Shown one piece after another: positions 3,790 to 40,449 of a stretch of 64,000 nt of DNA (the stretch's first letter is position 1; every line of letters begins with the position of its first letter). This DNA is from Chloroflexota bacterium. GTDB lineage: Bacteria; Chloroflexota; UBA11872; VXOZ01. The notes under the pieces were generated by a model. It was not told where the DNA came from and did no database searches. It saw nothing but the letters and a program-made list of their open reading frames with translations. The stretch spans positions 256,001-320,000 of the forward strand of contig CAXXVD010000003.1 of assembly GCA_963662335.2 (NCBI GenBank). The letters run 5' to 3'. The position numbers and the translations under genes were made by a program.

Positions 3790-4158
3790 TTTACCTGCTC
3801 CCTAGATTGGCAATCATCCCTACTAGAATCCAAAGTGCGCCATAACCAGCTAAGGATGCTACTTGAGGTCGAAGCACCAGAAGGTTGATTTCAGGCAATG
3901 GATCCTTTTCTAATCACCATACTACATGACGGCTATCGTCAACGCATTGAACCATGGTGCCAACTGATAGACAGTAATTCTGCACAATCTAGTTTAGCAG
4001 ACCAGATTGAGCATTTCCGTTGGGCGGAACTCTAAGTGATTGGATGGTCAGCGCGGGAATGTTTTGGGAAGAGCAATACACTCAGAGGTCAATTGGGCTA
4101 AACCACTAAGCCTCTGAGTGCAGTTTGCCAGTAGAGATCAGCAAAGTCGACTTGAAAA

Positions 4159-11691: not shown

Positions 11692-12801
11692 GTGGAAACG
11701 ATGCCGTACACCGCCCATTACCTCGATCCCAAACTTGCGCTAGAACGGGTTGCGGACGATGAGCAACTTCTCGCGATCGTTGCCGGCGGCGAAGGCGTCT
11801 TGTGGCTCGACTTCGAAGCTCCGGACGCCGGGGACCGGGCGCTGCTCATCGACGGCATGGGATTCCACCCCCTGGCCGTGGAAGCGTGCATCGAGCGCGA
11901 GACGCACGGCGTGCGCATCGAGGATTTCGGCGATTACGTATTCCTGAACGCGCGCGGCATCGACTACACGGCGAACGAGGACGTGCTGCAGACGGTCGAT
12001 CTCAGCATGTTCGTCGGCCGCAACTACGTGGTGACCGCCCACGACCGCTACATGCCGAGCGTGGAGGCGGTGCAAAAGCTGGTGGAGAGCAACGTAAAGC
12101 ACCTGATGAGCAGCCCTTCGCTGCTGGCGCACGCCCATCTGGACGCCCTCATTCAGGTGTTCCGGCCCGCGCTGGAGCGAATGTCGGATCACGCGGACGC
12201 GATCGAAGAGCAGATAATCGAGAATCCCAGCGAGGCGGCGCTGGCGGGAATCATGACGCTCAAGCGGTCGTGCCTGAGCCTGAACCGCGCCCTCGCGCCG
12301 CAGCGCGACGTCTTGAGCCGCCTGGGCCGCCGGGAATTCAGCCTGGTCGCGAAAGAAGCGGACCTCTACTTCCGCGACTTGTTCGAGGACCTGGTGCGGG
12401 TGCAGGCGTCGAACGACGTGATCCGGGAGCGGGCCGACACGGCGCTGGCCACCTATCTCTCCGCGGTGTCCAACCGGCAGAACGAATTCATGAAAGTCCT
12501 CTCCATCGTGGCGACCATATTCATGCCGCTGGGCCTGGTGGCCGGCATCTTTGGCATGAACTTCCAGTACATGCCGGGGCTCGACTTCCGCTGGGGCTAC
12601 TACGCCATCTGGGGCTTGACGCTGCTTGCGATTGTGCTTACGCTCTGGCTGCTGTGGCTCAGGCGGTGGGTCGCGGTCAGAGTGCGGGCGCTGCGCAGCC
12701 AGCGCTTCGGCCGGTTCGTGCCCACGGCCGTTGACCCCATTCGCCTGACCGTCTTTGCCGGCCGCGCCGTAGCACGAAACTTGCGGCGCAGAACTCACTG
12801 A
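11692..12801 (+). CDS. corA: CorA family Mg2+/Co2+ transporter
   Basis: WLD, FHPLAVE, NEFMKVLSIVATIFMPL, signature GIFGMNF..MP and two C-terminal TM helices. Confidence 0.92.
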   Translation: METMPYTAHYLDPKLALERVADDEQLLAIVAGGEGVLWLDFEAPDAGDRALLIDGMGFHPLAVEACIERETHGVRIEDFGDYVFLNARGIDYTANEDVLQTVDLSMFVGRNYVVTAHDRYMPSVEAVQKLVESNVKHLMSSPSLLAHAHLDALIQVFRPALERMSDHADAIEEQIIENPSEAALAGIMTLKRSCLSLNRALAPQRDVLSRLGRREFSLVAKEADLYFRDLFEDLVRVQASNDVIRERADTALATYLSAVSNRQNEFMKVLSIVATIFMPLGLVAGIFGMNFQYMPGLDFRWGYYAIWGLTLLAIVLTLWLLWLRRWVAVRVRALRSQRFGRFVPTAVDPIRLTVFAGRAVARNLRRRTH

Positions 12802-12884
12802 GCGCGCCGGGCGCAGTCCCGCTTTGCGCCGCTCAGGGCGTGTAGAGGGTTTCGTGTGTCTCGCGCCTAGCCGGCGCAACCGCG

Positions 12885-14633
12885 TCACGCCGGCAGCGTG
12901 ATCTTCATTTCCATATACTCGCCTGCCACGGAATCGGGCGTAATCGCGCCGCCGTGTTCCCGGATGATGTCGCTGGAGATGCTCAATCCCAGGCCGGTGC
13001 CCTTGTCCGTCGGTTTCGTGGTGAAGAAGGGGTTGAACATCTTTGCCAGCGTCTCCGGCGAGACGCCGACGCCGTTGTCCCGAATGCGTATCTCCAGTTC
13101 GTCTTCTTTTCGTTCGGTGCGCAGCCAGACCGTCGGCAGATATTGCGCTTCTCCCTGCTCGCGCAGCGCGCGGTTCTTCTCAGCGGTGGCGTAGCAGGCG
13201 TTGCCGACCATGTTCAAGAAGACGCGGCCCAGGTTGTCCGGGGCGGCGAGGATCTTGCCGGCGTCCGGATCGAACTCTTCGCGGATTTCCAGGGTGAAGT
13301 CCGGGTCTTGCGCCCGGGTGCTGTGGTAGGCGAGTTTGGCGCGATCGCTGAGGAGTTCGTTGATGTCCACGGCCTGGGTGCTGCCGCCGCCGCGGCCCAG
13401 CATCAGCATATCGCGGACGATGCGGTTGGCGCGTTCGCCGTGAACTTTGATGCGGTCCAGGTTGTCGGCCAGGTCCTGGGAGATTTCGTCGATGAGGGCG
13501 CGCGTGTCGTCGTCCAGTTCGCCCGCGCTGTCCGCCAGCGACTCCTTCAATTCGGCCAGCAACTCTTCCGACGCTTCGGAGAAGTTCTGCATGAAATTCA
13601 GCGGGTTTCTGATTTCATGGGCAACGCCGGCGGTCAACTCGCCGAGTTCGGCCAGCTTCTGGCGCACCAGAATTTGATCCTGCGCCTGCCGGAGTTCCGC
13701 CAGGACGCGCTCCAATTCGTCGTTCTTGGCCTTCAGGTCGGCGGCGAGTTTTCTGGCGATGTCCAACTGCATGGCCTTGATGGAACGCAGGCGGAGTTCT
13801 TCCAGCGCGTACGCCAGTTCGGTGATTTCGTCCTGGCCCGTAGGCTCCACCTTGTAGTCCAGGTCGCCGGCCCCCATGCGGCGGATCCAAAACTCCAGCG
13901 CTACCGAGCGGATTCCGACGCGAATCAAGAGATACGTGACCAATAGCAACAGCGCGGTCGAGGCAATGCCGAGAACGAGCAGGCGAATGCGCCCGGCGGC
14001 AATCGCACCGGCCGCTTCGGTTAATCCGGCGGCGGCTGCGGCGTGGGCGTCCGCGCGCAGCGCAGCCGCGGCAAGGGTAAGCGCCTGCGCCCGCTCCCGG
14101 TTGACCGCCAAGAGGCGGCTGCGGTCGGCGAGAAGCTGGGTTTCGCGCGCGCTTGGCGCCGCCGGGCCGCCGCCCGCATCCGCCCGGCTCTGCGCAAGGC
14201 GGAGCAATTCCGCTTGCCGGGCGCGCAGTTCCGCCAGGTTGTCCAGCAGCGCGCCGGCGTGTTCCGCGATCGGCGGCGCGGCGGCGCTCTCCGCATCCAG
14301 CTTTTCCAGGGACGCCAGCAAGAGGCCGTGCTGCTCCGCCGCGCCGGCGTAGGCCCGTTCAAGCTCCGCCGCAGTCGCCGCGGCGGCAAGAGCCGGCCCC
14401 GCCCCGGCCAGCGCGGCGGCATGTTCGGCCAGCGCCGCCGCGTCCGCCGCCGCGGGCAGGCCGCGCTCGCTCACCCGGCGCACGGACGCATCGATCGCGT
14501 TGAACGAAACAACGGTCAGAATGACGCCCAGAAACCCCAGCAGAATGAGCAGCAGCATGCTCACGTTTATCTGGGTGGACTTGCGCTTGGGGCTTAAGCG
14601 CGATAGCTTGAAGTCTCTCTCTTCGATAGACAT
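12885..14633 (-). CDS. Membrane sensor histidine kinase (TM, sensor, TM, HAMP, HisKA, HATPase)
   Basis: H box GVAHEIRNPLNF, N box NMVGNACYA, DNGVG, FNPFFTTK and GTGLGLS, plus HAMP GQDEITELA. The start is uncertain (14633 to 14723). Confidence 0.9.
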   Translation of the reverse strand: MSIEERDFKLSRLSPKRKSTQINVSMLLLILLGFLGVILTVVSFNAIDASVRRVSERGLPAAADAAALAEHAAALAGAGPALAAAATAAELERAYAGAAEQHGLLLASLEKLDAESAAAPPIAEHAGALLDNLAELRARQAELLRLAQSRADAGGGPAAPSARETQLLADRSRLLAVNRERAQALTLAAAALRADAHAAAAAGLTEAAGAIAAGRIRLLVLGIASTALLLLVTYLLIRVGIRSVALEFWIRRMGAGDLDYKVEPTGQDEITELAYALEELRLRSIKAMQLDIARKLAADLKAKNDELERVLAELRQAQDQILVRQKLAELGELTAGVAHEIRNPLNFMQNFSEASEELLAELKESLADSAGELDDDTRALIDEISQDLADNLDRIKVHGERANRIVRDMLMLGRGGGSTQAVDINELLSDRAKLAYHSTRAQDPDFTLEIREEFDPDAGKILAAPDNLGRVFLNMVGNACYATAEKNRALREQGEAQYLPTVWLRTERKEDELEIRIRDNGVGVSPETLAKMFNPFFTTKPTDKGTGLGLSISSDIIREHGGAITPDSVAGEYMEMKITLPA

Positions 14634-14802
14634 GTGGAATTCAGCGAAGGAGTTGGATGTGCCGTGCGCGTCTCGCTCCGCCGATCCGCGCAGTGCGCAC
14701 ATTTTAGTACAGTTGGTGCGCACATTCCACGCCGTGGGTATAGTTCACGCTGCGGCGGCCCCGCGCGCGTCCGTTGCCGAGGCTCTGTGGCGCCAGTGTC
14801 TG

Positions 14803-17800
14803 TCACTCCGTCACGGTGAGCGCGCCGCCCAGGGTCTCGCCGCGCTGCTCGGGCCGGTAGTACGAGTACGCCTGGGAGACGACCGCTTTGGCCCGCACCG
14901 GGTACTTGGCGTGCGCCTGGAACGCAAACGTGAGCGTCTCGCCGGCGCGCATGTTGTCGATGTAGAGAATTGCCTTGCGCCCGGCAATCTCGAAGCGCTT
15001 GAAGATGGCGTATTCCTCGACCAGGGCCGCCACCGTCTCGCGCACCGGCTCGAAGCCGGTGGGCACGGCCACGTCCAGCACCACCATGCCCGCCTCGATT
15101 CCATCGGGAGGATTGAACGTGACGCTGGTGTGGACGGTGATGCGGTCGTCCACCGCGACGCGCTCCGTACCGTAGTCAACCGTAATCGCGAACACGTCCG
15201 GAATCTCAGTTTCCCGATCGGGGATGTTGTAGCGCAGCACCGTCTGCACGATGGCCGTGCCCCGGCCCATGGCGGTGACGGTAACCGGGTTGCCGAGCGG
15301 TACCTGCACGATCTGCATCACGTCGGCGTTCTCCGGCGTGAGCGCCACTTCCTTGCGCCAGTCGCCGCTCTGCAGCACAACGGTCATCTCCACGTTTGTG
15401 GCTACCCGTGCGGAATGGGCGGCCAGGGCTTGGAGGCTGACGACCGTATCTTGCGTGGAGCCGTAGCCTCCCAGCGCGTTGCGCTGGCCCACCAGCCACT
15501 TGGCGGCCTGGGAAGCGTTGAAGTCGTCGTTGTTCGCCAGCAGCGCCGGCAGGGCGTAGCCGGTAGTCTCGATCGCGGCGGTATGGGCCCCGTGCCCGCC
15601 GCCCCAGTAGAGCGCGCCGTCCGCGTCCTCATTGGCCATGGCCATCAGCCTGGCGTGGGCCTCCGCCGCCAGCGCGCTATCGGCAAGGGCCAGCGCGTAG
15701 GCCGCGATCGCCATGGTGTACGGGTCTTGGATGCCTTCCAGCCGGCTTACCAGGTACTGCATGGCGCGCGCGGCCCCGAAGTCGCGGCCGGCTTCAAGCA
15801 GCGCAATCGCCACGTACGCCGTGAGCGCGTCCCGCCCCTGCAAGCCGCCCAACAGTTCCTGGTGGTGCAGGAAGCCGACGTTCTCGAACGAGCCGTCCGC
15901 CAACTGATGCCGCTCGATCCAGGCGGCCGCGCGGTCGAGGACCTGTGGGTCGATGTAGATGATCTCCCGGGACTCCGCAAACGTCTTGAGGACGAACGCC
16001 GTGAGCCACAGGCTGCCCTCGGTGTCGCTGTTGCCAAAGGCGGAGAAGCTGCCGTCGTCCCGCATGTAGGTCAGTTCGCGCTGGTAGCCGACCAGCATCA
16101 GGTGTTCGGCCTTGGCCATGATTTCGGGCTTTAGCTGACCCGTTTCCCGCAGGTAGCGCGTCACGTACACGTTTGGCGCGAAGAGGATCATGTTCTGTTC
16201 GCCGCAGCCGAAGGGCATCTGCAGGAGTTGGTCGAGGCCGGCGATGCTCTGGGTCATGAGGTTGCCCGAGAGCGCAACGTAGGCGCGGCCGGAGCCGGCG
16301 ATGGCGTCCGGCGGCAGGTGGGGCAGGAACTCGTGGCGCTGGCCGCCGGACAGCAGGCGGTTGTCGACGTGCTCGACGCCGATGCCTTCCGGCTCCACCA
16401 GCAGTTCCTTTATGACGGCGTCGGCGGTTTCCGCGCTGCGCGCGGTAATCTTGATCGGATTGCGGCCCAGGCCGGTGGGGCGAATCATGAACTCGACGCC
16501 GCCGATGTCGTTGGCGCCAACCGTGACCGCCTTGAGCGGCTCATCGAGCAACGCGAACCACTCACTTTCCTCGATCTCCACGAAGAATTCCTGGGCGGTC
16601 TGCCGGTAGTTGAAGAGAGCGATCTTCACCGGCAACTCCTCGCCTCGGATGGCGGAAACCGGCAAGTCCACGGTCAGGAAGAAGGGCTGGAAGACGCGCA
16701 GTTCGCTCTCGCCGATGCCCAAGCCGTGTTCTTTGGAGATGCCCACGGCGCGCAGCGCCCAGGTGGTGATGCTGTCCGGCGCTTCCACGCTCAGCACGGC
16801 GCGGCCGTTGGCGTCCGTGTACACGTCCCGCCAAATCCAGGTTTCGGGGAAGAACTGGCGCACCCGCTGGACTTCCGCTAGGTCTTCCGTGGGGCCGGGG
16901 CCTGCCTTGGCTTCCGCCATTTCCGCCCGCGGCGCTTCCGCTTCTTCCGCTGCCGCCGCCGCTACTACAAAGGAACGTTCCTGCGGTCGCTGGAGGCTTC
17001 TGCCGGCCGGCACGTCCTTGTTCGTCAATACCACCGTCCCGGCGGCGGCGAAAGTCTCAGAAGCGCCCCGCGCCTCGATCGTGTAGGAAATGTTGATGTC
17101 GTGGAGTTCCGCCTGCGGCTGTTGGTAGAGCCGCTCCAACTCGGCGAAGATCTGCTGCAAGTTCAGCCGGTTCTCGGCCAGGATGAAGACCGAGCGGTCC
17201 ACGGCCACCAGGCCGACCCGCGCCTCTCCCTGCGTCTGGACGCGCACGTCAACCGCATCGCCCGGCCGCACTTCTTCCCGGCTAAAGCCCACGTCCACGT
17301 CGTGGCCATAGCCCCCGGCCACGCCAAACGGCACGTAATCGGCGGCAATCTCGTTATTCGGCAGTATCTGATAGACGAGCAGGCGCGCGGACGGCGCCAT
17401 GAGCGCGGTAGCCGTGAAGGCAATGTCCGGGCCGCGAGACACGTCAGAAAAAACGACCGCGCCTCTGGAGAGCACCTCATAGTAGAAGGTGCGCGCTTCC
17501 CGCGTTGCATGGACGCGGAATTGCGCCGTATCGCCCACCGCGATTTCGCCTTGGGTCACTTGCTCGACGTGGATGAAGTTGTCGGAAGGCGAATGGCCCG
17601 CCTGGAGATTCAGAGACGCGTACGCCCTTCCCATCTGGGCGTGCACGGTCACGGCCGCGGCATAGGCGGGCGCGGTGACCCGCGCGATGGCCGTGCCGTT
17701 CTCAAGCGCAACCTCGATCCTCTCGGTTGAAGCCGTTTGGAACGCCTGGTTCACGTATTCGAGCGTCATAGTAACCGTGCCGTCGACCGGCGTGCCGTCA

Positions 17801-18951
17801 GGCTCCTGGGCGATGATGAGATAGCTCAGGGGCAGGCAGGGCTTGAGGGTGCGGCTCTCCGGTATGAGCGTGAGCGTCGCCGCCGCTTCCGTGACGGTGA
17901 GCAGTTTCGAGGTCTTCTGCTCGTAGCCGGTGCTCTTCTCGCGGACAGTCACGTCGAGCGTCACGTTGCCCTGGCCGCCGGCCTGGGGCACGCCGGCCAC
18001 GTATTGCGCCGGCGGCAGTTCGAAGGCGGCCTCGCCGTCGATCGGCGCGCTAAAGCGGGCGAACTCCTCCCAGCGGCCCACGTAGCGGGACGCGACAATC
18101 TCCACTTCGCCCACCACCGGCTTGCCGAAGGCGTATTGACCGGCAACCGTCCCCATTATCGGGTCGCTGGCGAGAATCCAGTCCCGTGCGGTCGTAATGC
18201 TCACCTCGTACTTGGGCAGCGCGTAGCGTTCCACGCGCACGTCCAGTTGGGTTGTGCGGTCGCCCGCCAGCGCGGTGAGTTTCCACACACCGAGATTCGG
18301 CTCGGTGGAAAGCGGGACGTCGAGCGTCGCCATGCCGAATTCGCCGGTCTCGACCTCTTTCCGATAGACCTTGATGCCCTTGGCGTCTTGCAATTCGAGC
18401 GTAGCGGCGGACGGCCAGGGCTTGAGCGCGGCGTCCAGGGTCATCAGGCGGACGTGTATCGTCTGGCCGGGTTGGTAGAGCGGCTTGTCGGTCTCGACGA
18501 ACAGGAGCAGGCCGTCTTCGACCCGCACGTACGCTCGGCGCTCATCCGGCACGCCCGCCACCGCAACGGCGACTTCGTAGTGGTTGGGCCCGTCGCGCGG
18601 TACCGGCAGCAGGATATTGGCCGTGCCGGACACCGCGGCCGCTACGCTCTGGGCCACCCGGCCGCCGTCCAGCAGCGATACGCGCACGTTGCCGCTGGCA
18701 GGCCGGTCGCCGTTGAAGAGCGAGACGGAGACGTGCTCGGTGTACCCCCGGCGCAGCGCCTGGGGCACGACCGCCACGTAGCTGTCCGGCTTGAGCGCAG
18801 GGTCTAGCGTCCCGGCTTGCGCGGCGCCGCCCGGCGCGGCCTGCGCCGGACACTCCTTGTCGAGGTACAGGATCTCTTCCGGGCCGTCGCCGCAACCTGC
18901 CAGGACCAGGATGAGGACTGCCAGGAACGAGAACGTCAAGAGTCTTCTCAT
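14803..18951 (-). CDS. Alpha-2-macroglobulin/thioester-containing protein (CD109/TEP-like), predicted lipoprotein
   Basis: Lipobox LAGC. Motifs FVETDKPLYQPGQ, VGLVAVD, FPETWIW, PDSITTW, thioester PFGCGEQNM (CGEQ codons 16195-16206), DGSFSAFG, LWLTAFV, GGYGSTQDT and YSYY.P. Confidence 0.93.
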   Translation of the reverse strand: MRRLLTFSFLAVLILVLAGCGDGPEEILYLDKECPAQAAPGGAAQAGTLDPALKPDSYVAVVPQALRRGYTEHVSVSLFNGDRPASGNVRVSLLDGGRVAQSVAAAVSGTANILLPVPRDGPNHYEVAVAVAGVPDERRAYVRVEDGLLLFVETDKPLYQPGQTIHVRLMTLDAALKPWPSAATLELQDAKGIKVYRKEVETGEFGMATLDVPLSTEPNLGVWKLTALAGDRTTQLDVRVERYALPKYEVSITTARDWILASDPIMGTVAGQYAFGKPVVGEVEIVASRYVGRWEEFARFSAPIDGEAAFELPPAQYVAGVPQAGGQGNVTLDVTVREKSTGYEQKTSKLLTVTEAAATLTLIPESRTLKPCLPLSYLIIAQEPDGTPVDGTVTMTLEYVNQAFQTASTERIEVALENGTAIARVTAPAYAAAVTVHAQMGRAYASLNLQAGHSPSDNFIHVEQVTQGEIAVGDTAQFRVHATREARTFYYEVLSRGAVVFSDVSRGPDIAFTATALMAPSARLLVYQILPNNEIAADYVPFGVAGGYGHDVDVGFSREEVRPGDAVDVRVQTQGEARVGLVAVDRSVFILAENRLNLQQIFAELERLYQQPQAELHDINISYTIEARGASETFAAAGTVVLTNKDVPAGRSLQRPQERSFVVAAAAAEEAEAPRAEMAEAKAGPGPTEDLAEVQRVRQFFPETWIWRDVYTDANGRAVLSVEAPDSITTWALRAVGISKEHGLGIGESELRVFQPFFLTVDLPVSAIRGEELPVKIALFNYRQTAQEFFVEIEESEWFALLDEPLKAVTVGANDIGGVEFMIRPTGLGRNPIKITARSAETADAVIKELLVEPEGIGVEHVDNRLLSGGQRHEFLPHLPPDAIAGSGRAYVALSGNLMTQSIAGLDQLLQMPFGCGEQNMILFAPNVYVTRYLRETGQLKPEIMAKAEHLMLVGYQRELTYMRDDGSFSAFGNSDTEGSLWLTAFVLKTFAESREIIYIDPQVLDRAAAWIERHQLADGSFENVGFLHHQELLGGLQGRDALTAYVAIALLEAGRDFGAARAMQYLVSRLEGIQDPYTMAIAAYALALADSALAAEAHARLMAMANEDADGALYWGGGHGAHTAAIETTGYALPALLANNDDFNASQAAKWLVGQRNALGGYGSTQDTVVSLQALAAHSARVATNVEMTVVLQSGDWRKEVALTPENADVMQIVQVPLGNPVTVTAMGRGTAIVQTVLRYNIPDRETEIPDVFAITVDYGTERVAVDDRITVHTSVTFNPPDGIEAGMVVLDVAVPTGFEPVRETVAALVEEYAIFKRFEIAGRKAILYIDNMRAGETLTFAFQAHAKYPVRAKAVVSQAYSYYRPEQRGETLGGALTVTE

Positions 18952-19016
18952 GGCGTGACAAATCCTTATTGGCAGCATTGCTGGGAAGCGCGCTTTGGCG
19001 GGGCCACGCCGGCGCG

Positions 19017-20633
19017 CTACCGCTCCAGCAGTCTTTGCGCAAGCTCCTTGGCTTCGTCCAGATCCTTGGCAAATCGGTCGGCGGGAACGCGCTGCAAGAC
19101 GTTGAGCGCGCGCAGGGCCAGCGCCGGCGCGCCGGTGAGGCCCATGATGATGCAGGCGGTCTCCTCGGCGGCCGCGATGTCCACCATCTGTTCCACCACC
19201 AGCGCCGCGCTATCGTCGATATACACGGTCTCGGAGAAGTCCAGGATTACCACCTCGTGGTCGCGGATGTCCACGCTGATCGTGTTGATCAGCTTGTTGG
19301 CGGAGGCCACGGAGAAACTCCCGCGCAGCGCCACCAGGCCCACCCGGGCCGAGAAGGCGTCCGCTGCCGCCGCTCTCTCTTCATCCCCAAGGAAGCTCTG
19401 GTCCAGCAGGGGCACGGAGACTACCCGGTCCAGTTCCAGGCGCTCGAACTGGCGCGCGCTCGCCATGCCGGCGGCAATCAGGCCGATGGCGACGGCGGTC
19501 ACCAGGTCCACGGCTACGGTGAGGCCCATAGTGATGAGCATCACCAGCAGGTGCTCGCGCTGCACGCGGTGGATGCGCAGGATGAAGCGCCAATCGATGA
19601 TGTCCCAGCCGACCTTCATCAGGATACCGGCCAGCACCGCGTGGGGAATCGCCTCCACGTATCTGCCGAGTCCCAGCACCAGCGCCAGCAGAATCGCCGC
19701 GCGCAACGCGCCGGAGACCTGCGTCTGGCCGCCGGCGCGGATGTTCACCACCGTCCCCAGGGTAGCGCCGGCGCCCGGCAGGCCGCCGATGAAGCCGGCC
19801 AGCATGTTGCCGATGCCCTGGCCGACCAGTTCCCGGTTCGGATTGTGGCGCGTGCGCGTCATGGCGTCGGCGATCAGCGAGGTGAGCAGGCTGTCGATCG
19901 AGCCGAGCAGCGCCAGGATCAAGGCCGGCTGGATGGCCGTGACCAGGATGCCCACTGAGAGCGCCGGCATGGCGATCTCCGGCAGGCCGGTCGGCACGTC
20001 GCCAATCACCGGCACGTCGGTCAGCAAGAACACGCCCAGCAGCGTGCCCACCGCCAGCGCCGCCAGCGTGGGCGGGAAGTAGCGCCGCAATCGCTGCGGC
20101 CAGAGCACGCCCACCGCCAGGGTCGCGGCGGCGATTGCCAGCGCGCTGAGGTTGATGTTGCCCAGCGCCTGCGGCCAGGCGCGCACCACGCCCACCGGCC
20201 CGCCGCTCGCTCCCGCCGCGCCCAGGAACGGCAGCGTTTGCAGCAGCATGATGATGATGCCGATGCCGGTCATGAAGCCGGAAATCACCGAATACGGCGT
20301 GAAAGCCACGAAACGGCCGATGCGCAGCGCGCCCAGCAGGATTTGGATGAGGCCGGCCATGATGACGATGGTAAAGGCCTCGGCCAGGCTGTCGGCGTGG
20401 GTGGTGAGGATGACCGCCATGGCCACGGCCATGGGGCCGGTGGGACCGGAGATTTGCGACTTGGTGCCGCCAAAGACCGCCGCGAAGAAGCCGACCGCGA
20501 TCGCGCCGTAGATGCCGGCCAGCGCCCCCAGGCCGGAGGCCACGCCAAAGGCCAACGCCACCGGCAAGCCCACCACGGCCGCCGTGACGCCGCCAAAGAT
20601 GTCCCCGCGGAGTGTCTGCAAGTTGTAGGTCAC
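19017..20633 (-). CDS. SulP/SLC26 family anion (probably bicarbonate, BicA-like) transporter with STAS domain
   Basis: GDIFGGVTAAVVGLPVALAFGVASG, QISGPTGPM, SIDSLLTS, PNRELVGQGIGN and a C-terminal STAS (ILDFSETVYIDDSA). GTG 20633 is preferred over ATG 20720. Confidence 0.9.
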   Translation of the reverse strand: MTYNLQTLRGDIFGGVTAAVVGLPVALAFGVASGLGALAGIYGAIAVGFFAAVFGGTKSQISGPTGPMAVAMAVILTTHADSLAEAFTIVIMAGLIQILLGALRIGRFVAFTPYSVISGFMTGIGIIIMLLQTLPFLGAAGASGGPVGVVRAWPQALGNINLSALAIAAATLAVGVLWPQRLRRYFPPTLAALAVGTLLGVFLLTDVPVIGDVPTGLPEIAMPALSVGILVTAIQPALILALLGSIDSLLTSLIADAMTRTRHNPNRELVGQGIGNMLAGFIGGLPGAGATLGTVVNIRAGGQTQVSGALRAAILLALVLGLGRYVEAIPHAVLAGILMKVGWDIIDWRFILRIHRVQREHLLVMLITMGLTVAVDLVTAVAIGLIAAGMASARQFERLELDRVVSVPLLDQSFLGDEERAAAADAFSARVGLVALRGSFSVASANKLINTISVDIRDHEVVILDFSETVYIDDSAALVVEQMVDIAAAEETACIIMGLTGAPALALRALNVLQRVPADRFAKDLDEAKELAQRLLER

Positions 20634-21017
20634 GTCATCGCATCCGGCAGTGCGGCCCGGCGCGGAGGGGCTGCGCCCGTTGGCAACGCTTCTCGCCGGC
20701 GGCGCGCTGCGCGTAGCCATGCTATCACAATGGAACCGGCGCGTCAGACTGGGCGCGAATCACCCCGCGCCTTGCGCCCGCCTCTCTTTAATTAAGGAAA
20801 GGGGCAGGAATCCGCGCGGCGCGCCGGCGCCCGGCGCCGGGCAATTGGGGGCCGCGGCAAGCCCGCGGCCGGGACTCCTCTTCCAGGCGCTCCAGGCGGT
20901 CATCTGCCCTCATTTGCCCCCGGAAGAGGCTTGGAGCGGGGTCCAGTCCTGATTCTGAGGCGGATGGGCGGGCAGGTTACGTCACTTAAGTGGCGCTGTT
21001 CAGCGGTTTATGACAGG

Positions 21018-21075
21018 GAATCCGGCGATTCCGGGCTTTTTCGGCATTTTCTCGGATTTTCCGGGACTCTTTGCT
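21018..21075 (+). repeat. Phased ~10-bp (G/C)ATTTTCCNN repeats upstream of promoter 1
   Basis: GAATCCGGC GATTCCGGG CTTTTTCGG CATTTTCTCG GATTTTCCGG GACTCTTTGC. Equivalent arrays precede promoters 2 and 3. Confidence 0.6.
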
Positions 21076-21084
21076 CAAAACCCC

Positions 21085-21144
21085 TTGCACTGTTTATTCG
21101 CGCATGATATTGTCTTTTGTGGAAATAGTTTATGAGCGAAACTA
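21085..21144 (+). promoter_or_regulatory. sigma70 promoter plus downstream palindromic operator, cassette 1
   Basis: TTGCAC, 17 nt, TATTGT with TGn extension (21085-21113). TAGTTT-N7-AAACTA at 21126-21144. Confidence 0.7.
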
Positions 21145-21256
21145 ATTCAGGATGATAGTACAGTACATGGGCCGGGAAAGTATCGCTTTCCTGGATAGTG
21201 CGCGGAGGACACCCCATGGGCAATCGGAATTCTGGCGCACGGCTAAGAGGAAACGT

Positions 21257-21330
21257 GGACACTGTCCTGCCTCCGGCCCTGCCGTCCTCCATCCCCGCGC
21301 AGGCTGCTCCGTCTCTGGCCGGACGGAGCA
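21257..21330 (+). ncRNA. Leader element A (C-rich loop plus hairpin), shared with cassette 3
   Basis: GGAC/GTCC, CCTG-[CCGTCCTCCATCCCCGCG]-CAGG and TGCTCCGTC/GACGGAGCA. Homologue at 40071-40146. Confidence 0.45.
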
Positions 21331-21593
21331 GACCAGCGTACCGCCCGGCTGATTGGCGGGAACGCGGCGGGCGAGCAAGCCAGCGGCCACGACCGGAGTG
21401 AGCGGATTGCCGGCGGGAGCCGGCCGCGGCAGAGCAAGAGAAGAGCGGTAACAGCAGGCGGCAAGAGCCGCCACAGAGACGAAGAAGCGGACAGCCGGCA
21501 GCGGCCGCCCGTTTTGCCACAGAGACGGCCAAGAGCCACACGGCAGCGGGATACGAGCAACGGGAGGCGCGGCGGAGGCTAATCGGAAGCAGC

Positions 21594-21719
21594 GTTTGGT
21601 TGGTACCTGAGCGGGGCCGTCGGAGGAGCGTCGGCGCGCTCGCAGGTAGCGCCGCCAGCGCGCGCTCGCCGAAGAGCGCGGCAAGCCACAGTTTTGCGGT
21701 TGGAGTGAAAGGGCTTGCC
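21594..21719 (+). ncRNA. Conserved structured 5' leader motif B, cassette 1
   Basis: TTGGTTG..ACCTGAGCG..GCCG..CGGC.CGCT..AGGTAGCGCCGCCAGCGCGCGC, a small hairpin, then a GGCAAGCC/GGCTTGCC stem. Present in all three cassettes. Confidence 0.55.
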
Positions 21720-21795
21720 GGACGAATTCGGCGACAACGGCGCGCGGCGGTCGGGGAGAGAGTTCGGCAGCGGTTGGAAAGCTATGGAGCGTGTC

Positions 21796-24700
21796 ATGGG
21801 TAGCACAGCGTCTCGCGGTAGGTTGAGCGCACGGAACCGGTGGCTTGGATGGTCGGCCCTCGCGCTGGCCGTCATTGCGGTAAGTTTTCTGGCATTCTCG
21901 CATACCGCGCGCGCGGACAGCGCAAGCGGCCCGCTGGACCCCGCGTTTGGCGCGGCGGGCGTCTTAAGCGATACGAATACCCCGAAGTCCGAACCCACGC
22001 CGACCCCTACGCCCGAGCCCACGCCGACGCCTGAACCGACGGCTACGCCCACGCCTACGCCTGAACCCACGCCAACACCGACCCCTACGCCTGAACCCAC
22101 GCCTACGCCTGAACCGACGGCTACGCCGACGGCTACGCCTGAGCCTACGCCGACGCCTACGCCTGAACCGACACCTACGCCTACGCCTGAGCCTACGCCG
22201 ACGCCGACGCCTGAACCCACGCCAACACCGACGTCTACGCCTACACCGACCCCTACGCCAACACCGACACCTGAGCCAACGCCGACGCCTAAACCCACGG
22301 CCACCCCGACACCCGAGCCGACGCCTGAGCCGTTAGTCGACGGCAAGGTGGATCTGTACGCGGAGCGGGACGCCGGCGGCGCGTCCGCCTCGATATCGTG
22401 GAGCCGCTATACGGAAGCCGGTTTCGACTACTATCGCCTGGTGGTCTGCGACGAGACGCAGTACGACGGCTATTCGTGCAGCGGCACGGTCTACCAGAGC
22501 GAGGCGCACTACAACGTAAACGAAACCGGTCCGGAGACCGTGACCGGTCTTGACCCCTACACCAAGTACGGGATCATCTTGCAGGTGTGGCGCAAGGCCG
22601 TAAGCGGGGCGCTGAAGTTCCGCGCCGTGTTGCCGGCCCTGCCGGAGCCCACGCCGACGCCAACGCCTGAGCCGAAGCCAACCCCGACGCCGACGCCTGA
22701 GCCAACGGCCACGCCGACACCGACGCCTGAGCCGACGGCCACGCCGACACCGACGCCAACGCCGACCCCAACGCCGACGCCGCAGGCGCTGGCGGAGCCG
22801 CCGGCCGGCGTCAGCGCGTCGCGGGGCGACGGCACGTTGACGGTATCGTGGAACGCGGTGGCAGGCGCCAGCGGCTACAACGTCAACTGGACCAGCGACC
22901 ACAAGGCAAGCTGGAGCCGGGGCGCCAGCAGCGTGAGCGGGACGAGCGTCACGCTGACCGGCATCGACGATAGCAAAGAATACTACGTGGCGGTGCAGGC
23001 GGAGAACGCCAACGGCGTGAGCGGTTGGACGGAATCAAGCCTGATCGGCGCCGTTGAAGCGAAGCCGACCCCAACGCCGACCCCGACGCCCACGCCGGCG
23101 CCTGAGCTTGCCCCCTCCTTTGGCGACGCGGCCGTCGCGGACCAGAGCTACCAAGTCAACACGGCCATCACCACGCTGACCCTGCCGGCGGCCACCGGCG
23201 GTGGCGAGACGCTCACCTATGCCTTGACTCCCGCTCTGCCCGCGGGGCTGACCTTCGACGCTGCGGCGCGGACGCTCAGCGGCACGGCCACGGCAGCGGC
23301 GGCCAGCGCAATCTACTACTACACCGCCACCGACGGCACGGACTCCGCCATGCTGTCGTTCAGCATCGAAGTTACGGCGGCGGAAGAGCAGGCGCAGGCT
23401 GCGGCAGGCCTCACCTGGGTCACCACGCCGCCCACCAAGCTGGAGTGGACGCAGGGCACGGCCGTCAACGTGACGCTGCCCGCGGCCACCGGCGACCCCA
23501 ACATCAGTTACCACCTGAGAGATGGCTGCGGCTCTACAAATGCGAAATTGCCTCAAGGGATAACCTGGAACGCCTCCACCCGCACCCTCAGCGGCACGCC
23601 CACCAAGTGGTTCGCCACCCGGGTAGGCTGTTACCAGGCCTCCGCCTCCAACAAGGGCGCGCCGAACGCAATCATCCACATCCGGGCGGCGGACACGGCG
23701 GGCAACCACGCGCCCTACGCCAGCATCAAGAGCAGTGGAGCCCAGTTGGTCGCGCAGCTCTGGTCGAAATACGGGCACTGCTACAGCGGCTCCATCACCT
23801 TTGCCCCCAGCAGCGGCCACACCAAGCACTTCTACGACCCGGAAGACGACACGCTGACCTACACGGCAGGCTCGGACAAGATTGTCAGCACCACCATCAA
23901 TTCCAGCGGCTACGCCGTGGCGACCCTCAGGCATCCCACCCTGAACTGGCATTCCTTCCACTACACGGCGACGGACCCCGACGGGCTCTACGACTCGATT
24001 AGCCTGCAGGTGAAGCATTTCGACTGCAAGGAGACCATGAGCGTCCAGGAGAACAAGCCCAAGGACACCGTGGTGGGGAGCGTGGGCGGGGGGAACGCCG
24101 CCGACGGCAGCAGCTTCTCCATCAGCGGCGACGCCGCCACCTACTTCGACATGAATTCCAGCACCGGCCAGATTACAGTGAAGGACGGGACGACGCTGGA
24201 CTACGAGACCACCAAGAGCTACTCCGGCAAATTCCGGTACACCGTCGAAAACAAGTCGATGGGGGGCGACCTCGCAATCAACGTGAACGACGTCCGGGCG
24301 CCGAACATGGGCCGGCCGACGCTGGCGCAGAACGCGACCAACCCGACGACGTCGCTGGACGTTTCGTGGGTGGCGCCGACGCCGATGGCCGGCACCACGC
24401 TAAACGACTACGACGTGCAGTACCGCGAGCGGGGCACGAGCACGTGGTCGGCTATACCCGACACCACCAACAGCACGACCACCAGCGCCACCATCACCGG
24501 CCTGACGGCGGGCAAGGAATACGAGGTGCAGGTGCGCTCCCAGATCGCCGACGAAGGCCCCGGCCACTGGTCCGTTTCGTCCATGATCCTCTACGTGGCC
24601 GAGAACACGGCGGCCAACGGCAACGTGGGCGGGATATTCAATGTCAAGGCCACCGACTTCTATCCGATGGGCTTCACCCTGGGCGGCACCGACGGCTCCA

Positions 24701-27700
24701 AGTTCAAGATGAGCACCAACACCGGCTACAAGACGGACCAGTCCGGCCAGATACAGGTCAAGTCGGGAACCACCCTGGACTACGAAACCAAGTCGGTCTA
24801 CACCGCTACCCTCCGTATCAACGAGTGGAATCAGGCCAACAGGAACCTCCAAGACTACACCCACAGCCTGTTCATCTACGTAACCGACGTGAATGAGCCG
24901 CCGGCCAAGCCGGCCGCGCCGACGGTGGCGGCGAATTCTACCACGCCGACGACCAAGTTGGACGTGAGTTGGACGGCGCCAACGATGACGGGCAAGCCGG
25001 CGATCACGGACTACGACGTGCAGTACCGCAAGGTTGGGGATTCCACGTGGAGTTCCCACAGCCACACGGGCACGGCAACCACCGCGGCGCTGACGGGCCT
25101 GACGGCGGGCAAGACGTACGAGGTGCAGGTGCGGGCCACCAACGCCGAGGGCACGAGCAGTTGGTCGGACAGCGGCACGGCGATCACCGAGGCCGGCGGC
25201 GTGACCCGCAGCGTAGACGAGAACACGGCGGCCGGCGAGAACGTGGGCGCGGCGGTGACGGCGAAGGCCAACAGCAAGTACACCTACACCCACAGCCTGA
25301 GCGGCACGGACGCGAGCAGTTTCACCATCGAGAGCGGCACCGGTCAGATCAAGGTCAAGACCGGCACCAGCCTGGACTACGAAACCACAACGTCGTACAG
25401 CGTCACGGTGACGGTGGCGGTGAGCGCGGTCACGGTGACCTCGTCGTCCCAGAGCGTCGACCCGAACGCGCCGGGCAACTACGTGATACCGGTGACGATC
25501 AACGTGACGGACGTGAACGAGCCGCCGCCAAAACCGGCCGCGCCCACGGTAGCGAAGCATGCGAGCAGTCCCAAGGCGAAGCTGGACGTGAGTTGGACGG
25601 CGCTTACCACCACGCAGATGAACGGCAAGCCGGCGGTGAGCGACTACGACGTGCAGTACCGCAAGATTGGGGATTCCACCTGGAGTGCGCACAGCCACAC
25701 GGGCACGGGCACCAGCGCGACGCTGACGGGATTGACGGCCGGCAAGGCGTACGACGTGCAGGTGCGCGCGGTGAACGCGGAAGGGAACGGCGCGTGGTCG
25801 GATTCGGGCCGGGCGGTGACGGAGAGCGGCGACGTGACCCGGAGCGTGGCGGAGAACTCGGCCGCCGGGACGAACGTGGGGAGCGCGGTGACGATGACGG
25901 GCGGCGGCTATAAGTTCGTGCATACGCTGAGCGGGACGGACGCGGGCAAGTTCGAAATCAGTAGCAGCACGGGCCAGATTACGGTCAAGAGCGGCACGAG
26001 CCTGGACTACGATACGAAGACGTCGTACAGCGTGACGGTGGGCATCGCGGTGACGGGCACGGGGAACGGGCAGAGCGAGGCCAACGCGCCGGGCAACTAC
26101 GTGATACCGGTGACCATCAACGTGACGGACGTGAACGAGAAGCCGACGTTCAGCGCCACGCCGACGCGGAGCATCGCGGAGAACTCTACTGCCGGGACGA
26201 ACGTGGGAACGGCATTCACGGCGACGGACCCGGAGAGCGACACGCTGACGTACACGCTGACGGGCACGGACGCGGCGAAATTCAACATTGGCAGCGCCAC
26301 CGGCCAGATAACGGTCAAGACGGGGAACGTCCCGAACTACGAAGCGAAGACGAGCTACAGCGTGACCGTTAACGTGACGGACGGCAAGAAGGCGGACGGC
26401 ACGGCGGACGCGACGATCGACGACACCGTCAACGTGACCATCAACGTGACGGACGTGAACGAGCCGCCGGCGAAGCCGGCCGCGCCGTCGGTGGCGCAGA
26501 ACGCCACCACGCCCAAGACTAAGCTGGACGTAAGCTGGACGGCGCCGGACATGACCGGCAAGCCGGCCATCACCGGCTACGACGTGCAGTACAAGCAGAG
26601 CAGCGATTCGAACTGGACGGCGCACAGTTTCACGGGCACGGGCACGAGCACGACCCTGACCGGGCTGACCGGCGGGACGTCGTACGACGTGCAGGTGAAG
26701 GCGATCAACGACGAGGGCAACAGCGGCTGGTCGGACAGCGGCACGGGCACGACGCAGGCCACCAACCTGAACCCGACGCTGCCGGCTCCGCCGCACGGTC
26801 AGACGAGCCTGAGCCGGAGCATTGCCGAGAACTCGCCGGCGGGCACGAACGTGGGCGCGGCGGTAACGGCCAGCGACACCGAGGGCGACACGCTGACCTA
26901 CACGCTGAGCGGCACGGACGCGGCCAAGTTCGACATTGGCGCAAACACCGGCCAGATTACCGTGAAGGCGGGCAATGTCCCGGACTACGAGAGCAAGTCC
27001 TCGTACAGCGTGACCGTGGAGGTCAGCGACAAGAAGGACGGCAACGGCAACGCCGACACGAAGATCGACGACACGATCGACGTGACGATCGACGTTACCG
27101 ACGTGAACGAGCCGCCGGGCAAACCGGAGAACCTGACGGTGACGCCGAACTCAAGCACGCCGGAGAGCAAGCTGGAGTTGAGTTGGGACGCGCCGGACAT
27201 GACGGGCAAACCGGCCCTTGCCGGCTACGACGTGCAGTACCGGCTGGCCGGGGCGAGCAACTGGACCGCCAAGAGCCACAGCGGCACGGGCACGAGCGCG
27301 ACGTTGAGCGGCCTGACGGCCGGCAAGACGTACGAGGCGCGGGTGCGGGCCAAGAACGACGAGGGCGAAAGCGGCTGGGCGTCGGGCCAGAGCATCACGG
27401 ACGGGAGCGCGGTGACGCGCAGCGTGGCCGAGAATGCGGCGGCCGGCACGAACGTGGGCGCGGCGGTGACGGCCGCCTCCAATCCGAACAACTATACGCT
27501 GACGCACAGCTTGAGCGGGACGGACGCCGGTTCGTTCACCATCGAGAGCGGCAGCGGCCAGCTCAAGGTGAAGAGCGGCGCGAATCTGGACTACGAGACC
27601 AAGAGCGCGTACAGCGTGATCGTGACGGTGAAAGCGGCCGAGGCGCAGACCCAGGGCGCGCAGAAACAGTCGCTCGAGCCGAACGCGCCGGGGAATTACG

Positions 27701-29691
27701 TGATACCGGTGACGATCAACGTGACGGACGTGAATGAAGCGCCCGAGTTCGACGACGGCGCCTCCACCAGCCGCGGCATTGCCGAGAATTCTGCCGCCGG
27801 CGCAAACGTGGGCAAGGCGGTGACGGCAACGGATCCCGAGGGCGACACATTGACGTATAGCCTCGGCGGGACAGACGCGGCCAAGTTCAACATCGGCAGT
27901 TCCACCGGCCAGATAACGGTGAAGGCCGGCAACATCCCGGACTATGAAGCCAAGACGTCGTACCGCGTTACGGTGAACGTGACGGACGGGAAGAACGGCA
28001 GCGGCGGCAGCGACACGACGATCGACGACACGATCGACGTAACCATCAACGTGACGGACGTGAACGAGCCGCCGCCGGCGCCGGCCGCGCCGGCGGTGGC
28101 GCAGAATGCCGCCACGCCCAAGACCAAGCTGGACGTGAGTTGGACGGCGCCCGACGTGACCGGCAAGCCGGCCATCACGGACTACGACGTGCAGTACAAG
28201 AAGAAGAGCGAGTCCACCTGGACGGCGCACAGCTTCACGGGCACGGGCACGAGCACGACGCTGACGGGCTTGAGCGAGGGCACGACCTACGAGGTGCAGG
28301 TGAAGGCCGGCAACGACGAGGGGAACAGCGGCTGGTCGGACAGCGGCACGGGCACGACCCAGGGCAAGAACCTGCCGCCGGGATTCCCGGACATTCCCAA
28401 CGGCGGGACGAGCCTGAACCGCAGCATCGCGGAAAACTCGCCGGTGGGAACGAACGTGGGCACGCCCGTGAAGGCCGCGGACACGGAAAGCGACACCCTG
28501 TACTACGAGCTGGATGGGATGGACAGCGCCAAGTTCGACATCGGCGAGACCACCGGACAGATTACGGTGAAGGCGGGGAACATCCCCGACTATGAAGCCA
28601 GGAGTTCGTACAGCGTGAAGGTGAGCGTAAGCGACCGGAAGGACGCCGACGGCAACCCGGATACGGCGATCGACGACTCGATCGCGGTGACGGTCACGGT
28701 GACGGACGTAGCGGAGCCGCCGGCGACGCCGGACGCGCCGACGGTGAAGGTGAATGCGTACTCGCCGACGAGCAAACTGGACGTGAGTTGGGATGCGCCG
28801 GACATGACGGGCAAGCCGGCCATTACGGACTACGACGTGCGGTTCCGCTACGTAGGCGGGACGAACTGGCAGAGCCGCGATCACACCGGCACGGGCACGG
28901 GCACGAGCATCGACAGATTGCTCCACGACACGACGTATGAAGTGCAGGTGAAGGCGAAGAACGACGAGGGCGAGAGCGGCTGGTCGGCGTCGGGCACGGC
29001 CACGACGGATTCGCCGAGCGCGGATTTCAATGACCCGGCGCCGCCGCTGGCGCTAGATCCAAATCCCTCGCCGCCGCTGATACCGATACCGGGGCCGCCG
29101 AACGTGATTGGCACGAGCGCCTGCGCGACGACCCATGACCTGGGGAGGACGATCCGGTTGATACGGAAGGACGGCGGCGCGGATCTGAACATCGAGATTG
29201 GGTCGATCTCGGCCGACGGCAGCCGCGTGGTGGTGGCTGGCTTCATCCGCGATGACGACCAGGGGCAGACCTATAGCATCGTGCGCTACGAGGCCGACGG
29301 CCGCGTGGTGCGGCTGTGGGTGGATCCGGACGATCCGTTGATCCAACAGATACCGTGGGACGTGGTGAACTCGCAGTACACGGTGCCGGTGTGCGTGGTG
29401 GTGGCGATCCCGTTGGACGATCAGTTTCCGGCTCAGGGGCAACTGGTGCGGCGGTTCGACGGGGCCGACGACCGGATCTTCCGGCACGTGGGCAACCTGG
29501 AGTGGCGGCAGATACCGGACTTAGGGACGTTCCAGGGCATGGGACTGTACTGGTGCAACGTGACGGCGGCGGACTCGGAGTTTTTCAAGCGGATCAACAT
29601 TGGCGCGCCGCTGCCCAGCGGCGGCATGGATCCCCAGGTGGGCTATCCTTCGTGTTGGAAGTGGGAGCAGAAGGGTCCCCGCTCCCGCTGA
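21796..29691 (+). CDS. Giant secreted surface protein 1: PT linkers, FN3, Ig-like (He_PIG) and cadherin repeats, conserved C-terminal domain
   Basis: Sec signal peptide ending ARA. FN3 ([23 protein letters not shown]...WS), cadherin motifs (EN, A.D.E.D, LDYE, DVNE.P) and LPAGLTFD...RTLSGT. GGAG RBS lies 6 nt before ATG 21796 (the ORF track starts at 21715). Confidence 0.9.
21991..22330 (+). repeat. Coding Pro/Thr/Glu linker repeat (PEPTPT)n
   Basis: Degenerate ACNCCN/GARCCN tandem repeats. Confidence 0.85.
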
Positions 29692-30444: not shown

Positions 30445-30572
30445 GTTGGTTGACCTGAACTTGAGCGTGGCCGCCGCGAGCGGATGGCACGCTCGCAGGT
30501 AGCGCCGCCAGCGCGCGCTCGCCGAAGAGCGCGGCAAGCCACAGTTTTGCGGTTGGAGTGAAAGGGCTTGCC
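30445..30572 (+). ncRNA. Conserved structured leader motif B, cassette 2
   Basis: GTTGGTTGACCTG..GAGCGT/ACGCTC..CAGGTAGCGCCGCCAGC and GGCAAGCC/GGCTTGCC. Confidence 0.55.
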
Positions 30573-30648
30573 GGACGAATTCGGCGACAACGGCGCGCGG
30601 CGGTCGGGGAGAGAGTTCGGCAGCGGTTGGAAAGCTATGGAGCGTGTC

Positions 30649-40373: not shown

Positions 40374-40449
40374 AATGGGTTTCAGCGTGGAGCGTGCGCA
40401 GCGGTTGGGACGTGGGCTCGGTTTTTCTAGCAATGCTATGGAGCGTGTC

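Follow-up and report, generated by a model that had tools for sequence, protein, structure and literature searches.

A putative lipid-anchored thioester protein of the CD109/A2ML1 type in a Chloroflexota bacterium, probably a protease trap

Introduction

A gene of a Chloroflexota bacterium, carried on the minus strand of a 64,000-nucleotide stretch of contig CAXXVD010000003.1 (the window), encodes a complete protein of the alpha-macroglobulin/thioester-containing protein (TEP) superfamily. The protein is of the eukaryote type, not the bacterial alpha-2-macroglobulin (A2M) type of which YfhM is the example. We propose that it is probably a protease trap of the alpha-macroglobulin kind, anchored by a lipid and likely monomeric, in the eukaryote-like subfamily of CD109, A2ML1, and A2M. 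The gene had been singled out from the DNA letters alone as encoding a surface lipoprotein like CD109, the TEPs, and complement C3, one that might attach covalently to glycans or host surfaces (the original prediction). The portrait of a CD109/TEP-like lipoprotein that combines a CGEQ thioester motif with a catalytic-position His stands. The emphasis on C3 and the inferred tagging of glycans or host surfaces are not supported.

The Gene and Its Product

The gene lies on contig C3 of a five-contig, 96%-complete assembly. From the first ATG there is a single open frame of 1391 codons (window 14803..18978, minus strand). A second in-frame ATG at 18951 (M10) gives a protein of 1382 amino acids (aa), to which the upstream ATG at 18978 would add nine residues. 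The start at 18951 is preferred because a homologue of 98% identity, P0002, has a length of 1382 aa and because the lipobox Cys is residue 20 in the close homologues P0002–P0016. Residue numbers refer to the 1391-aa frame unless stated otherwise, and the coordinates of all parts were re-translated. The features are as follows.

14803..18951, minus strand: coding sequence of the 1382-aa thioester-containing lipoprotein of the alpha-macroglobulin family; stop codon at 14803-14805.
18892..18951, minus strand: type II signal peptide and lipobox (LAGC), MRRLLTFSFLAVLILVLAGC, with Cys29; from re-translation and the conserved Cys column.
18784..18891, minus strand: variable low-complexity tether from the lipid anchor to the first MG domain, residues 30–65; from alignment variability.
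16999..18783, minus strand: MG1–MG6 ring with the bait-region domain (BRD); Pfam MG2 159–249, MG3 252–300, A2M_BRD 473–600.
16879..16998, minus strand: bait-like hypervariable segment, residues 661–700, SLQRPQERSFVVAAAAAEEAEAPRAEMAEAKAGPGPTEDL; from alignment variability.
16576..16842, minus strand: MG7 (Pfam A2M, residues 713–801), directly after FPETW; E 3.4e-26.
15418..16266, minus strand: thioester domain (TED; Pfam TED_complement, residues 905–1187), inserted in CUB; E 5.7e-82.
16195..16206, minus strand: CGEQ thioester motif (Cys925, Gln928); from a motif scan and re-translation.
15862..15867, minus strand: His1038-His1039; from HMMER alignment to CD109 and A2ML1 and from a C3 peptide.
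14836..15096, minus strand: C-terminal MG8 or receptor-binding-type domain (RBD; Pfam A2M_recep, residues 1295–1381); E 3.4e-16.

The Pfam domains over the cut-off, MG2, MG3, A2M_BRD, A2M (MG7), TED_complement, and A2M_recep, occur in the canonical order. The protein has the eukaryote-type arrangement of MG1–MG6 with an inserted BRD, followed by MG7, a CUB domain with an inserted TED, and MG8/RBD. Chance resemblance is excluded by the TED_complement match (E 5.7e-82), by the five further A2M-family Pfam domains over the cut-off, and by the match to CD109 (E 1.8e-135). No anaphylatoxin or C345C/NTR domain was matched in Pfam at E ≤ 0.01, and the protein ends in MG8/RBD. The bMG10 model stayed below its cut-off (20.6 versus 26.2 bits), and no other bMG model was matched in the Pfam scan. 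The sole NCBIfam match, a sub-threshold one to a squalene-cyclase model, is attributed to the alpha/alpha-toroid fold that the TED has in common with it. PADLOC gave no match for the thioester protein.

Relationship to Known Thioester Proteins

The best matches among solved structures are all eukaryotic, as follows.

Human CD109: E 1.8e-135, 457 bits; collinear, query 157–1347 on chain 150–1379.
A2M: E 1.4e-133, 450 bits.
A2ML1: E 1.8e-125, 424 bits.
Anopheles TEP1: E 1.3e-96, 328 bits.
C4: E 2.2e-90, 307 bits.
C3: E 6.7e-82, 279 bits.

The match to the C3 beta chain places query 130–615 on chain 79–599. When the TED only is compared, CD109 scores 205 bits versus 22–24 bits for E. coli YfhM, and a direct BLASTP comparison with YfhM of E. 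coli K-12 gives only 46 bits for the entire protein, versus the 457 bits of CD109. The original prediction had set the protein with CD109, A2M, and the TEPs and apart from YfhM, and these scores bear it out; by sequence, domains, and linkage to pbpC alike, the protein falls outside the classical bacterial A2Ms, membership of which would have counted against the original prediction. The emphasis that had been put on C3 is not supported, with 279 bits for C3 versus 424–457 bits for CD109, A2M, and A2ML1, and with no anaphylatoxin or C345C/NTR domain found.

An AlphaFold2 (AF2) model of residues 700–1391, built from a 39-row alignment, has a predicted local distance difference test score (pLDDT) of 85.7 and a predicted TM-score (pTM) of 0.78. 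The TED of the model is all-helical with strands on either side, and the MG8/RBD packs in the native arrangement. In Foldseek comparisons, the TM-scores for the query (TMq) are as follows.

Native structures: A2ML1 0.88; CD109 0.87; A2M 0.86; TEP1 0.83; C3 0.77–0.79.
Activated structures: C3b 0.36–0.37; induced A2M 0.43; active CD109 0.39.

The model fits the native structures well and the activated forms poorly, and the protein is therefore predicted to be in the resting state, in which the thioester is shielded.

The Thioester Motif and the Catalytic-Position His

The sequence GCGEQNM is found at 924, with Cys925, and the segment FENVGFLHHQELLGG (FLHHQELLGG) is at 1031. The second His of this segment is His1039, exactly 114 residues after the Cys. 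Every feature first reported for the protein is present: the 1382-aa length, the lipobox, GCGEQNM, the second His at Cys+114, the low-complexity segment ahead of FPETW, and the lack of a pbpC neighbour. Conservation was measured in an alignment of 114 full-length relatives, from which 7 of 121 proteins (P0001–P0121) of 1300 aa or less had been dropped. CGEQ is present in all 114; the His1039 column has His in 112 and Asn in two. The latter are P0007 and P0014 (76% identical), which have FVHNQGLLGG, a natural His-to-Asn switch inside the family to the state found in human A2M.

In HMMER alignments, His1039 pairs with the His of CD109 (vIHSELQGG), with that of A2ML1 (lLHTAMKGG), and with the Asn of A2M (lLNNAIKGG). 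For C3, the human peptide ...APVIHQEMIGGLR, numbered by its R1134, puts the His at 1126 (PMC4989008; the papers given here by PMC number are cited from excerpts), and the motif VIHQEMIGG given in the original prediction is correct. In CD109, A2ML1, and C3, the His that forms the acyl-imidazole occupies the same sequence position as His1039. In the wider set of 130 tree rows described below, His occupies the column in 23 of the 25 CGEQ rows that are low in Cys, in 66 of the 87 rows with at least 0.5% Cys (mostly but not only members of a eukaryote clan), and in 8 of the 17 rows that form a separate, presumably prokaryotic group with CFEQ or CMEQ; YfhM has Tyr.

As judged by these alignments, then, the catalytic-position His is not specific to C3. 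In A2ML1, it works through an acyl-imidazole that reacts with amines and hydroxyls, and A2ML1 is a monomer whose inhibition of proteases requires conjugation (PMC9156758, in the excerpt used). CD109 is likewise described as a monomeric, conjugation-dependent inhibitor (PMC12927315, excerpt). Because the same His is found in these two protease inhibitors, it provides no argument for the tagging of glycans or a host, as the original prediction would have it. Moreover, His is the majority state among the CGEQ proteins examined, so that its presence alone does not point in that direction.

The Bait, the Lipid Anchor, and the Cysteines

The FPETW sequence at 710 is preceded by an Ala/Glu-rich stretch, ...VVAAAAAEEAEAPRAEMAEAKAGPGPTEDL..., as had been predicted of a bait-like segment. 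In the 114-row alignment, residues 661–690 are hypervariable, with an entropy of 2.55, an identity to the query of 0.21, a gap fraction of 0.26, and 12.6 inserted residues per sequence. The tether, residues 31–60, has an entropy of 2.52, a gap fraction of 0.37, and 24.6 inserted residues per sequence. Apart from this N-terminal tether, no part of the mature protein varies more in sequence or in length than 661–690, which lies between the BRD and MG7, the site of the bait in the alpha-macroglobulin/TEP family. We suggest residues ~661–700 as the candidate bait.

The lipobox Cys column has Cys in 101 of the 114 full-length relatives; a stricter regular expression for the lipobox matched just 48 of the 121 relatives. 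LspA was found in the bacterium's own genome. The 1382 aa include four Cys residues in total. A2M is a disulfide-linked tetramer; with only four Cys, no disulfide-linked oligomer of that kind is expected here.

Proposed Function and Alternatives

The course of events that we propose, from thioester formation, bait cleavage, and conjugation to the monomeric state and the protective role, is drawn by homology. Following export, the protein would be acylated at Cys29 and, by way of the flexible linker of ~35 residues, stay attached to the cytoplasmic membrane at its outer face. At rest, the Cys925–Gln928 thioester would be buried between the TED and MG8. A foreign endopeptidase would cleave the exposed, fast-evolving bait (~residues 661–700), releasing a conformational change by which the thioester would become exposed. 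His1039 would attack the thioester to form a short-lived acyl-imidazole, able to react with any nearby amine or hydroxyl, which in practice would be on the cleaving protease. The protease would end up covalently tied to the cell-bound trap and hindered from access to envelope proteins. Observed directly are the motifs, the order of the domains, a predicted packing close to the native one, and the conservation of the anchor Cys, CGEQ, and His throughout the family. These observations support the proposal, as do the collinear match to CD109, the variable candidate bait, the low number of Cys, and the precedent of CD109 and A2ML1, which carry the same His and are monomeric inhibitors that need thioester conjugation.

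Several observations weigh on the other side. Biochemical data on a member of the family were not found in the literature searched. The genes nearby do not name a target: all-against-all clustering of 386 flanking open reading frames (ORFs), up to three genes on each side, from the loci with an identifiable gene gave no conserved partner or protease neighbour, and no gene cluster occurs in more than six loci. The two functional loops of the AF2 model, 922–924 and 1038–1045, have pLDDT values below 50, and the adjacency of His1039 to the thioester is putative, from sequence position. Surface tagging of the complement/TEP kind would fit a His at this position equally well. Finally, Lgt (PF01790, TIGR00544) was not found in the bacterium's own 96%-complete, five-contig assembly; since it is present in all five relatives searched, two of them from the same genus, a gap in the assembly is the likeliest cause.

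The real rival is a tagger like complement or the insect TEPs, which we consider improbable without dismissing it. A specific protease, own or foreign, would activate the thioester, which would fix the protein to hydroxyls on a foreign surface, whether of a competing cell, a predator, or a virus, for marking or agglutination and not for protease inhibition. Hydroxyl reactivity is what the catalytic-position His confers on C3, C4B, and A2ML1 (PMC9156758, in part), the model matches the fold of Anopheles TEP1 (TMq 0.83), and roles in immunity or conflict have been proposed for the archaeal A2M homologues (Makarova et al. 2021, PMC8416519, as excerpted). Three giant putative surface proteins with fn3 and cadherin repeats are encoded 3–31 kb away, and the relatives P0017 and P0083 themselves contain a cadherin domain. 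However, the comparison of flanking genes shows no convertase-like or other conserved partner, Pfam finds neither anaphylatoxin nor C345C domains, and PADLOC has no match. The N-terminal lipid anchor would hold the protein to the cell that makes it, hypervariability of the bait is characteristic of traps for a broad range of proteases, and the nearest solved relatives with the His, CD109 and A2ML1, are inhibitors.

It is still less probable that the protein is a covalent adhesin, a tethered thioester protein binding the bacterium to glycans or host surfaces. Such a role could draw on the surface anchor and on the hydroxyl reaction that His1039 permits. However, the thioester of A2M-type proteins is buried until proteolytic activation, the AF2 model has the native, shielded packing, and the His is common to protease inhibitors. 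Nor is there a sign of a host in the window or among the relatives, which are patchily distributed in the phylum and whose record titles name nearly always metagenome-assembled genomes (MAGs). A protease trap, anchored to the cell whose envelope it would protect, is the reading that we retain.

Distribution of the Family

The protein is not a rarity but one member of a large prokaryotic family. A word-indexed protein search, with 8000 candidates scored, gave at least 1599 proteins at E ≤ 0.001, mainly from Chloroflexota, Actinomycetota, Acidobacteriota, and Methanosarcinaceae. All 120 matches listed have the same Pfam set, and the few with a name bear either 'alpha-2-macroglobulin' (SAR202, Chloroflexi, Anaerolineae, Dehalococcoidia) or 'CD109 antigen' (JGI). 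Of 149 candidate stretches in species-representative genomes, 102 encode relatives, and 80 of these were kept. Identity to the query is 63–77% in Chloroflexota and Dehalococcoidia, ~50–54% in Anaerolineae, Thermomicrobiales, and Actinomycetota (Gaiellales, Thermoleophilia), 40–42% in Methanosarcinaceae and a Halobacteriota MAG, and 40% in one member of the Sedimentisphaerales. One relative is in a MAG labelled Sphingomonadaceae. With residues 700–1391 as the query, an exhaustive search gave 11357 representatives at E ≤ 0.001, of which 2680 reach E ≤ 1e-30.

Of 151 genomes of the phylum, 9 carry the gene (E ≤ 1e-50), its own genome included; among the three other genomes of the genus, one does. 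This patchy distribution fits an accessory defensive gene. The gene is single-copy in its own genome. In one Dehalococcoidia MAG contig, CBDFGS010000008.1, two copies (L005 and L045) are found ~45 kb apart in opposite orientation.

In a separate group of CFEQ type, which accounts for 17 of the 130 rows of the tree (P0201, P0212, and P0249 among them), CGEQ is replaced by GCFEQT(S) or GCMEQ. Its members are ~1550–2080 aa long, cysteine-poor, presumably prokaryotic, and 34–36% identical to the C-terminal half of the query. Some of their N-termini resemble anti-sigma or transmembrane segments.

Phylogeny and Origin

Two trees were made. The FastTree tree has 130 rows, namely 128 representatives, the query, and YfhM; the representatives are the best 150 less 22 fragments covering fewer than 600 of the 692 query residues. 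The quick IQ-TREE tree (LG+G4) is of a chosen subset of 55 rows, 46 of them from the FastTree set and nine being named locus translations. C3, C4, and C5 ranked outside the best 150 and so are absent from both trees.

Both trees contain a eukaryote clan with a support of 100 (84 rows in FastTree, 20 rows in IQ-TREE) that is made up of animals, prasinophytes, and dinoflagellates; the taxon labels cover all of its rows except P0147, P0155, and P0172. The animal rows include Oscarella, Trichoplax, Hydractinia, Branchiostoma, Ptychodera, a bivalve, a chiton, fish CD109, bird A2ML1, a mantis shrimp, and Ciona. The basal Cys-rich rows were identified as protists by a second homologue search, with P0189 as the query. 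These CGEQ/His proteins (P0189, P0194, P0157, P0193, P0308, and relatives) come from dinoflagellates (Polarella, Symbiodinium, MMETSP) and prasinophytes (Micromonas commoda, Cymbomonas, Pyramimonas). Since they group with the animal ones, the type is not confined to animals among eukaryotes.

The Chloroflexota protein is in a clan of Dehalococcoidia, Anaerolineae, Thermomicrobiales, and Actinomycetota (10 rows, SH-aLRT 97 in IQ-TREE), separate from the eukaryote clan. Another prokaryotic clan unites Methanosarcinaceae, Sedimentisphaerales, Acidobacteriota, and the CFEQ group (17 rows, support 99). Further rows were identified as Acidobacteriota and Undinarchaeales/Methanopyri. The backbone between the clans is without resolution. 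YfhM was tried as an outgroup root and dropped: its branch is very long (3.9–4.2 changes per column) and attaches at different points in FastTree and IQ-TREE. For this reason, the trees are read without a root and without a direction of transfer. They do bear on the origin of the TEPs, as foreseen, by placing the protein outside and not inside a eukaryote clan with a support of 100.

Recent acquisition from one particular animal lineage is thereby excluded. The broader idea of a recently captured animal CD109 or TEP gene, or of eukaryotic contamination of the assembly, is very improbable and already contradicted. It could appeal to the best solved matches, all of them animal proteins, and to the 33–42% identity of animal representatives over the C-terminal 692 aa. 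Against it, the G+C content of the gene (0.65–0.68) equals that of its flanks, the lipobox and the neighbours are bacterial, related Chloroflexota have orthologues of 76–82% identity with shared synteny, and both trees put the prokaryotic clan outside the eukaryote one.

As for the direction of transfer, Budd et al. in 2004 reportedly proposed a transfer from metazoans to bacteria for the YfhM and YfaS types. It is tempting to propose, as a conjecture to which we give somewhat less than even weight, that the prokaryotic CGEQ/His lipoproteins of Chloroflexota, Actinomycetota, and their kin are not borrowed animal genes but the stock of all eukaryotic thioester proteins. Under the same tentative proposal, A2M, CD109, the insect TEPs, complement C3/C4/C5, and the prasinophyte and dinoflagellate copies would be their descendants. 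If so, the acyl-imidazole His and bait-triggered covalent capture would already have been present in bacteria, and the chemistry of complement would have started as a defence of the bacterial envelope.

Genomic Neighbourhood

The thioester gene is flanked on the same strand by genes for a SulP/STAS permease (19017-20720) and a HAMP-HisKA-HATPase kinase (12885-14723). No pbpC gene is near it, as the original prediction had noted, and both Transgly-domain penicillin-binding proteins (PBPs) of the genome are encoded on other contigs, C1 and C2. The neighbours in the window (SulP, the kinase, an MFS protein, and a xanthine permease) recur only in relatives of 76–77% identity, at five loci. The intergenic gaps on the minus strand are without promoter- or terminator-like sites; a scan of 12500-21500 gave no promoter-like sites and nine terminator-like ones versus 6.3 expected, and is uninformative.

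At a distance of 3 kb from the thioester gene begins a tandem of three giant ORFs made up of fn3, cadherin, and He_PIG repeats. They are listed below with a small ORF that lies between the second and third of them and with two ORFs of lower G+C content elsewhere in the window.

21715-29691, plus strand: giant ORF, 2658 aa.
30568-39426, plus strand: giant ORF, 2952 aa.
40369-41418, plus strand: small fn3 ORF.
41429-50026, plus strand: giant ORF, 2865 aa.
1402-3789, minus strand: 795-aa ORF in a low-G+C block (2001-4000, G+C 0.47 versus ~0.65 elsewhere).
53860-55056, minus strand: 398-aa AAA_21/AbiEii-like ATPase (E 1.9e-42), G+C 0.58 at 54001-56000.

The giant ORFs have a strong skew of A over T on the coding strand and look like genes for huge surface or adhesion proteins. 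The ORF at 1402-3789, whose sole match is a sub-threshold one to ORC-CDC6-like proteins and which PADLOC leaves unmatched, is probably a recently acquired gene. For the ATPase, a link to defence or a toxin-antitoxin system is possible.

Discussion

The superfamily, the chemistry of the thioester, and the existence of bacterial A2Ms are already known, and databases annotate the present family automatically. The literature on bacterial A2Ms is almost wholly about the YfhM/ECAM type of Gram-negative bacteria. A 2026 review (PMC12939704), in the portion available to us, gives metazoans and Gram-negative bacteria as the only carriers of A2M and does not contain 'prokaryot', 'archaea', or 'horizontal'. 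Macroglobulins are not mentioned by Aravind et al. (2012). In the literature searched, we found no description of the Chloroflexota CGEQ/His family, apart from the Methanomicrobia homologues in the excerpted text of Makarova et al. (PMC8416519).

The gene thus reveals a second, large prokaryotic family, one with the eukaryotic body plan, the animal GCGEQNM, the catalytic-position His, and a predicted bacterial lipid anchor, that spans Chloroflexota, Actinomycetota, Acidobacteriota, and methanogens. Its importance lies mainly in the evolutionary question and in its use as a simple model. The family supplies prokaryotic sequences with which to test whether the animal thioester proteins, and the core of complement with them, are of bacterial origin or passed into bacteria, and it offers tractable, cysteine-poor, non-glycosylated models of the CD109/A2ML1 mechanism.

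Comparison with Known Systems

CD109 (PDB 8S3O, native; 9FX3, active) is the closest of the known proteins. It has an identical GCGEQNM, a His at the same position, and a similar length, and it is lipid-anchored on the cell surface, as is predicted for the Chloroflexota protein. In contrast to the Chloroflexota protein with its N-terminal bacterial lipobox, CD109 has a C-terminal glycosylphosphatidylinositol anchor on MG8 and is shed after activation (PMC12927315, in the part cited). The Chloroflexota protein also differs in having only four Cys residues and in lying outside the animal CD109 clade in the trees. A2ML1 (7Q1Y, 7Q5Z) shares the catalytic-position His and the predicted native fold, and A2M (7VON, 6TAV) differs in having Asn at the His position. 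The human forms of both are secreted without a lipid anchor.

Complement C3 and C4B have GCGEQNM, and His-Gln-Glu at the catalytic position (VIHQEMIGG in C3). They are the weaker match (279–307 bits versus 457 bits for CD109), and no convertase partners are seen near the Chloroflexota gene.

YfhM (ECAM) of E. coli and the Salmonella A2M belong to the same superfamily, have a CxEQ thioester motif, and presumably protect the envelope from proteases. YfhM, which begins MKKLRVAACMLMLALAGC, shares the N-terminal lipobox. It differs in having CLEQ rather than CGEQ, Tyr in the His column, and 1653 aa rather than 1382 aa, with two extra N-terminal domains, MG0 and NIE (PMC9156758 and PMC12939704, both in part). 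Furthermore, yfhM adjoins pbpC in E. coli, and the Chloroflexota gene has no PBP gene nearby.

Among archaea, the A2M homologues are reported to carry a CxEQ motif, and the Methanomicrobia ones, for example of Methanolobus, are held to be close to bacterial A2Ms and probably acquired by transfer (Makarova et al. 2021, PMC8416519, excerpt). As far as the excerpted text goes, that paper does not split a eukaryote-like CGEQ/His type from the YfhM type, and Chloroflexota are not treated in it. The Methanolobus and Methanococcoides proteins are 40–41% identical to the Chloroflexota one.

The best-supported reading of the design is a composite of two known systems, in which a body and a chemistry of the CD109/A2ML1 type are joined to an N-terminal anchor of the YfhM type.

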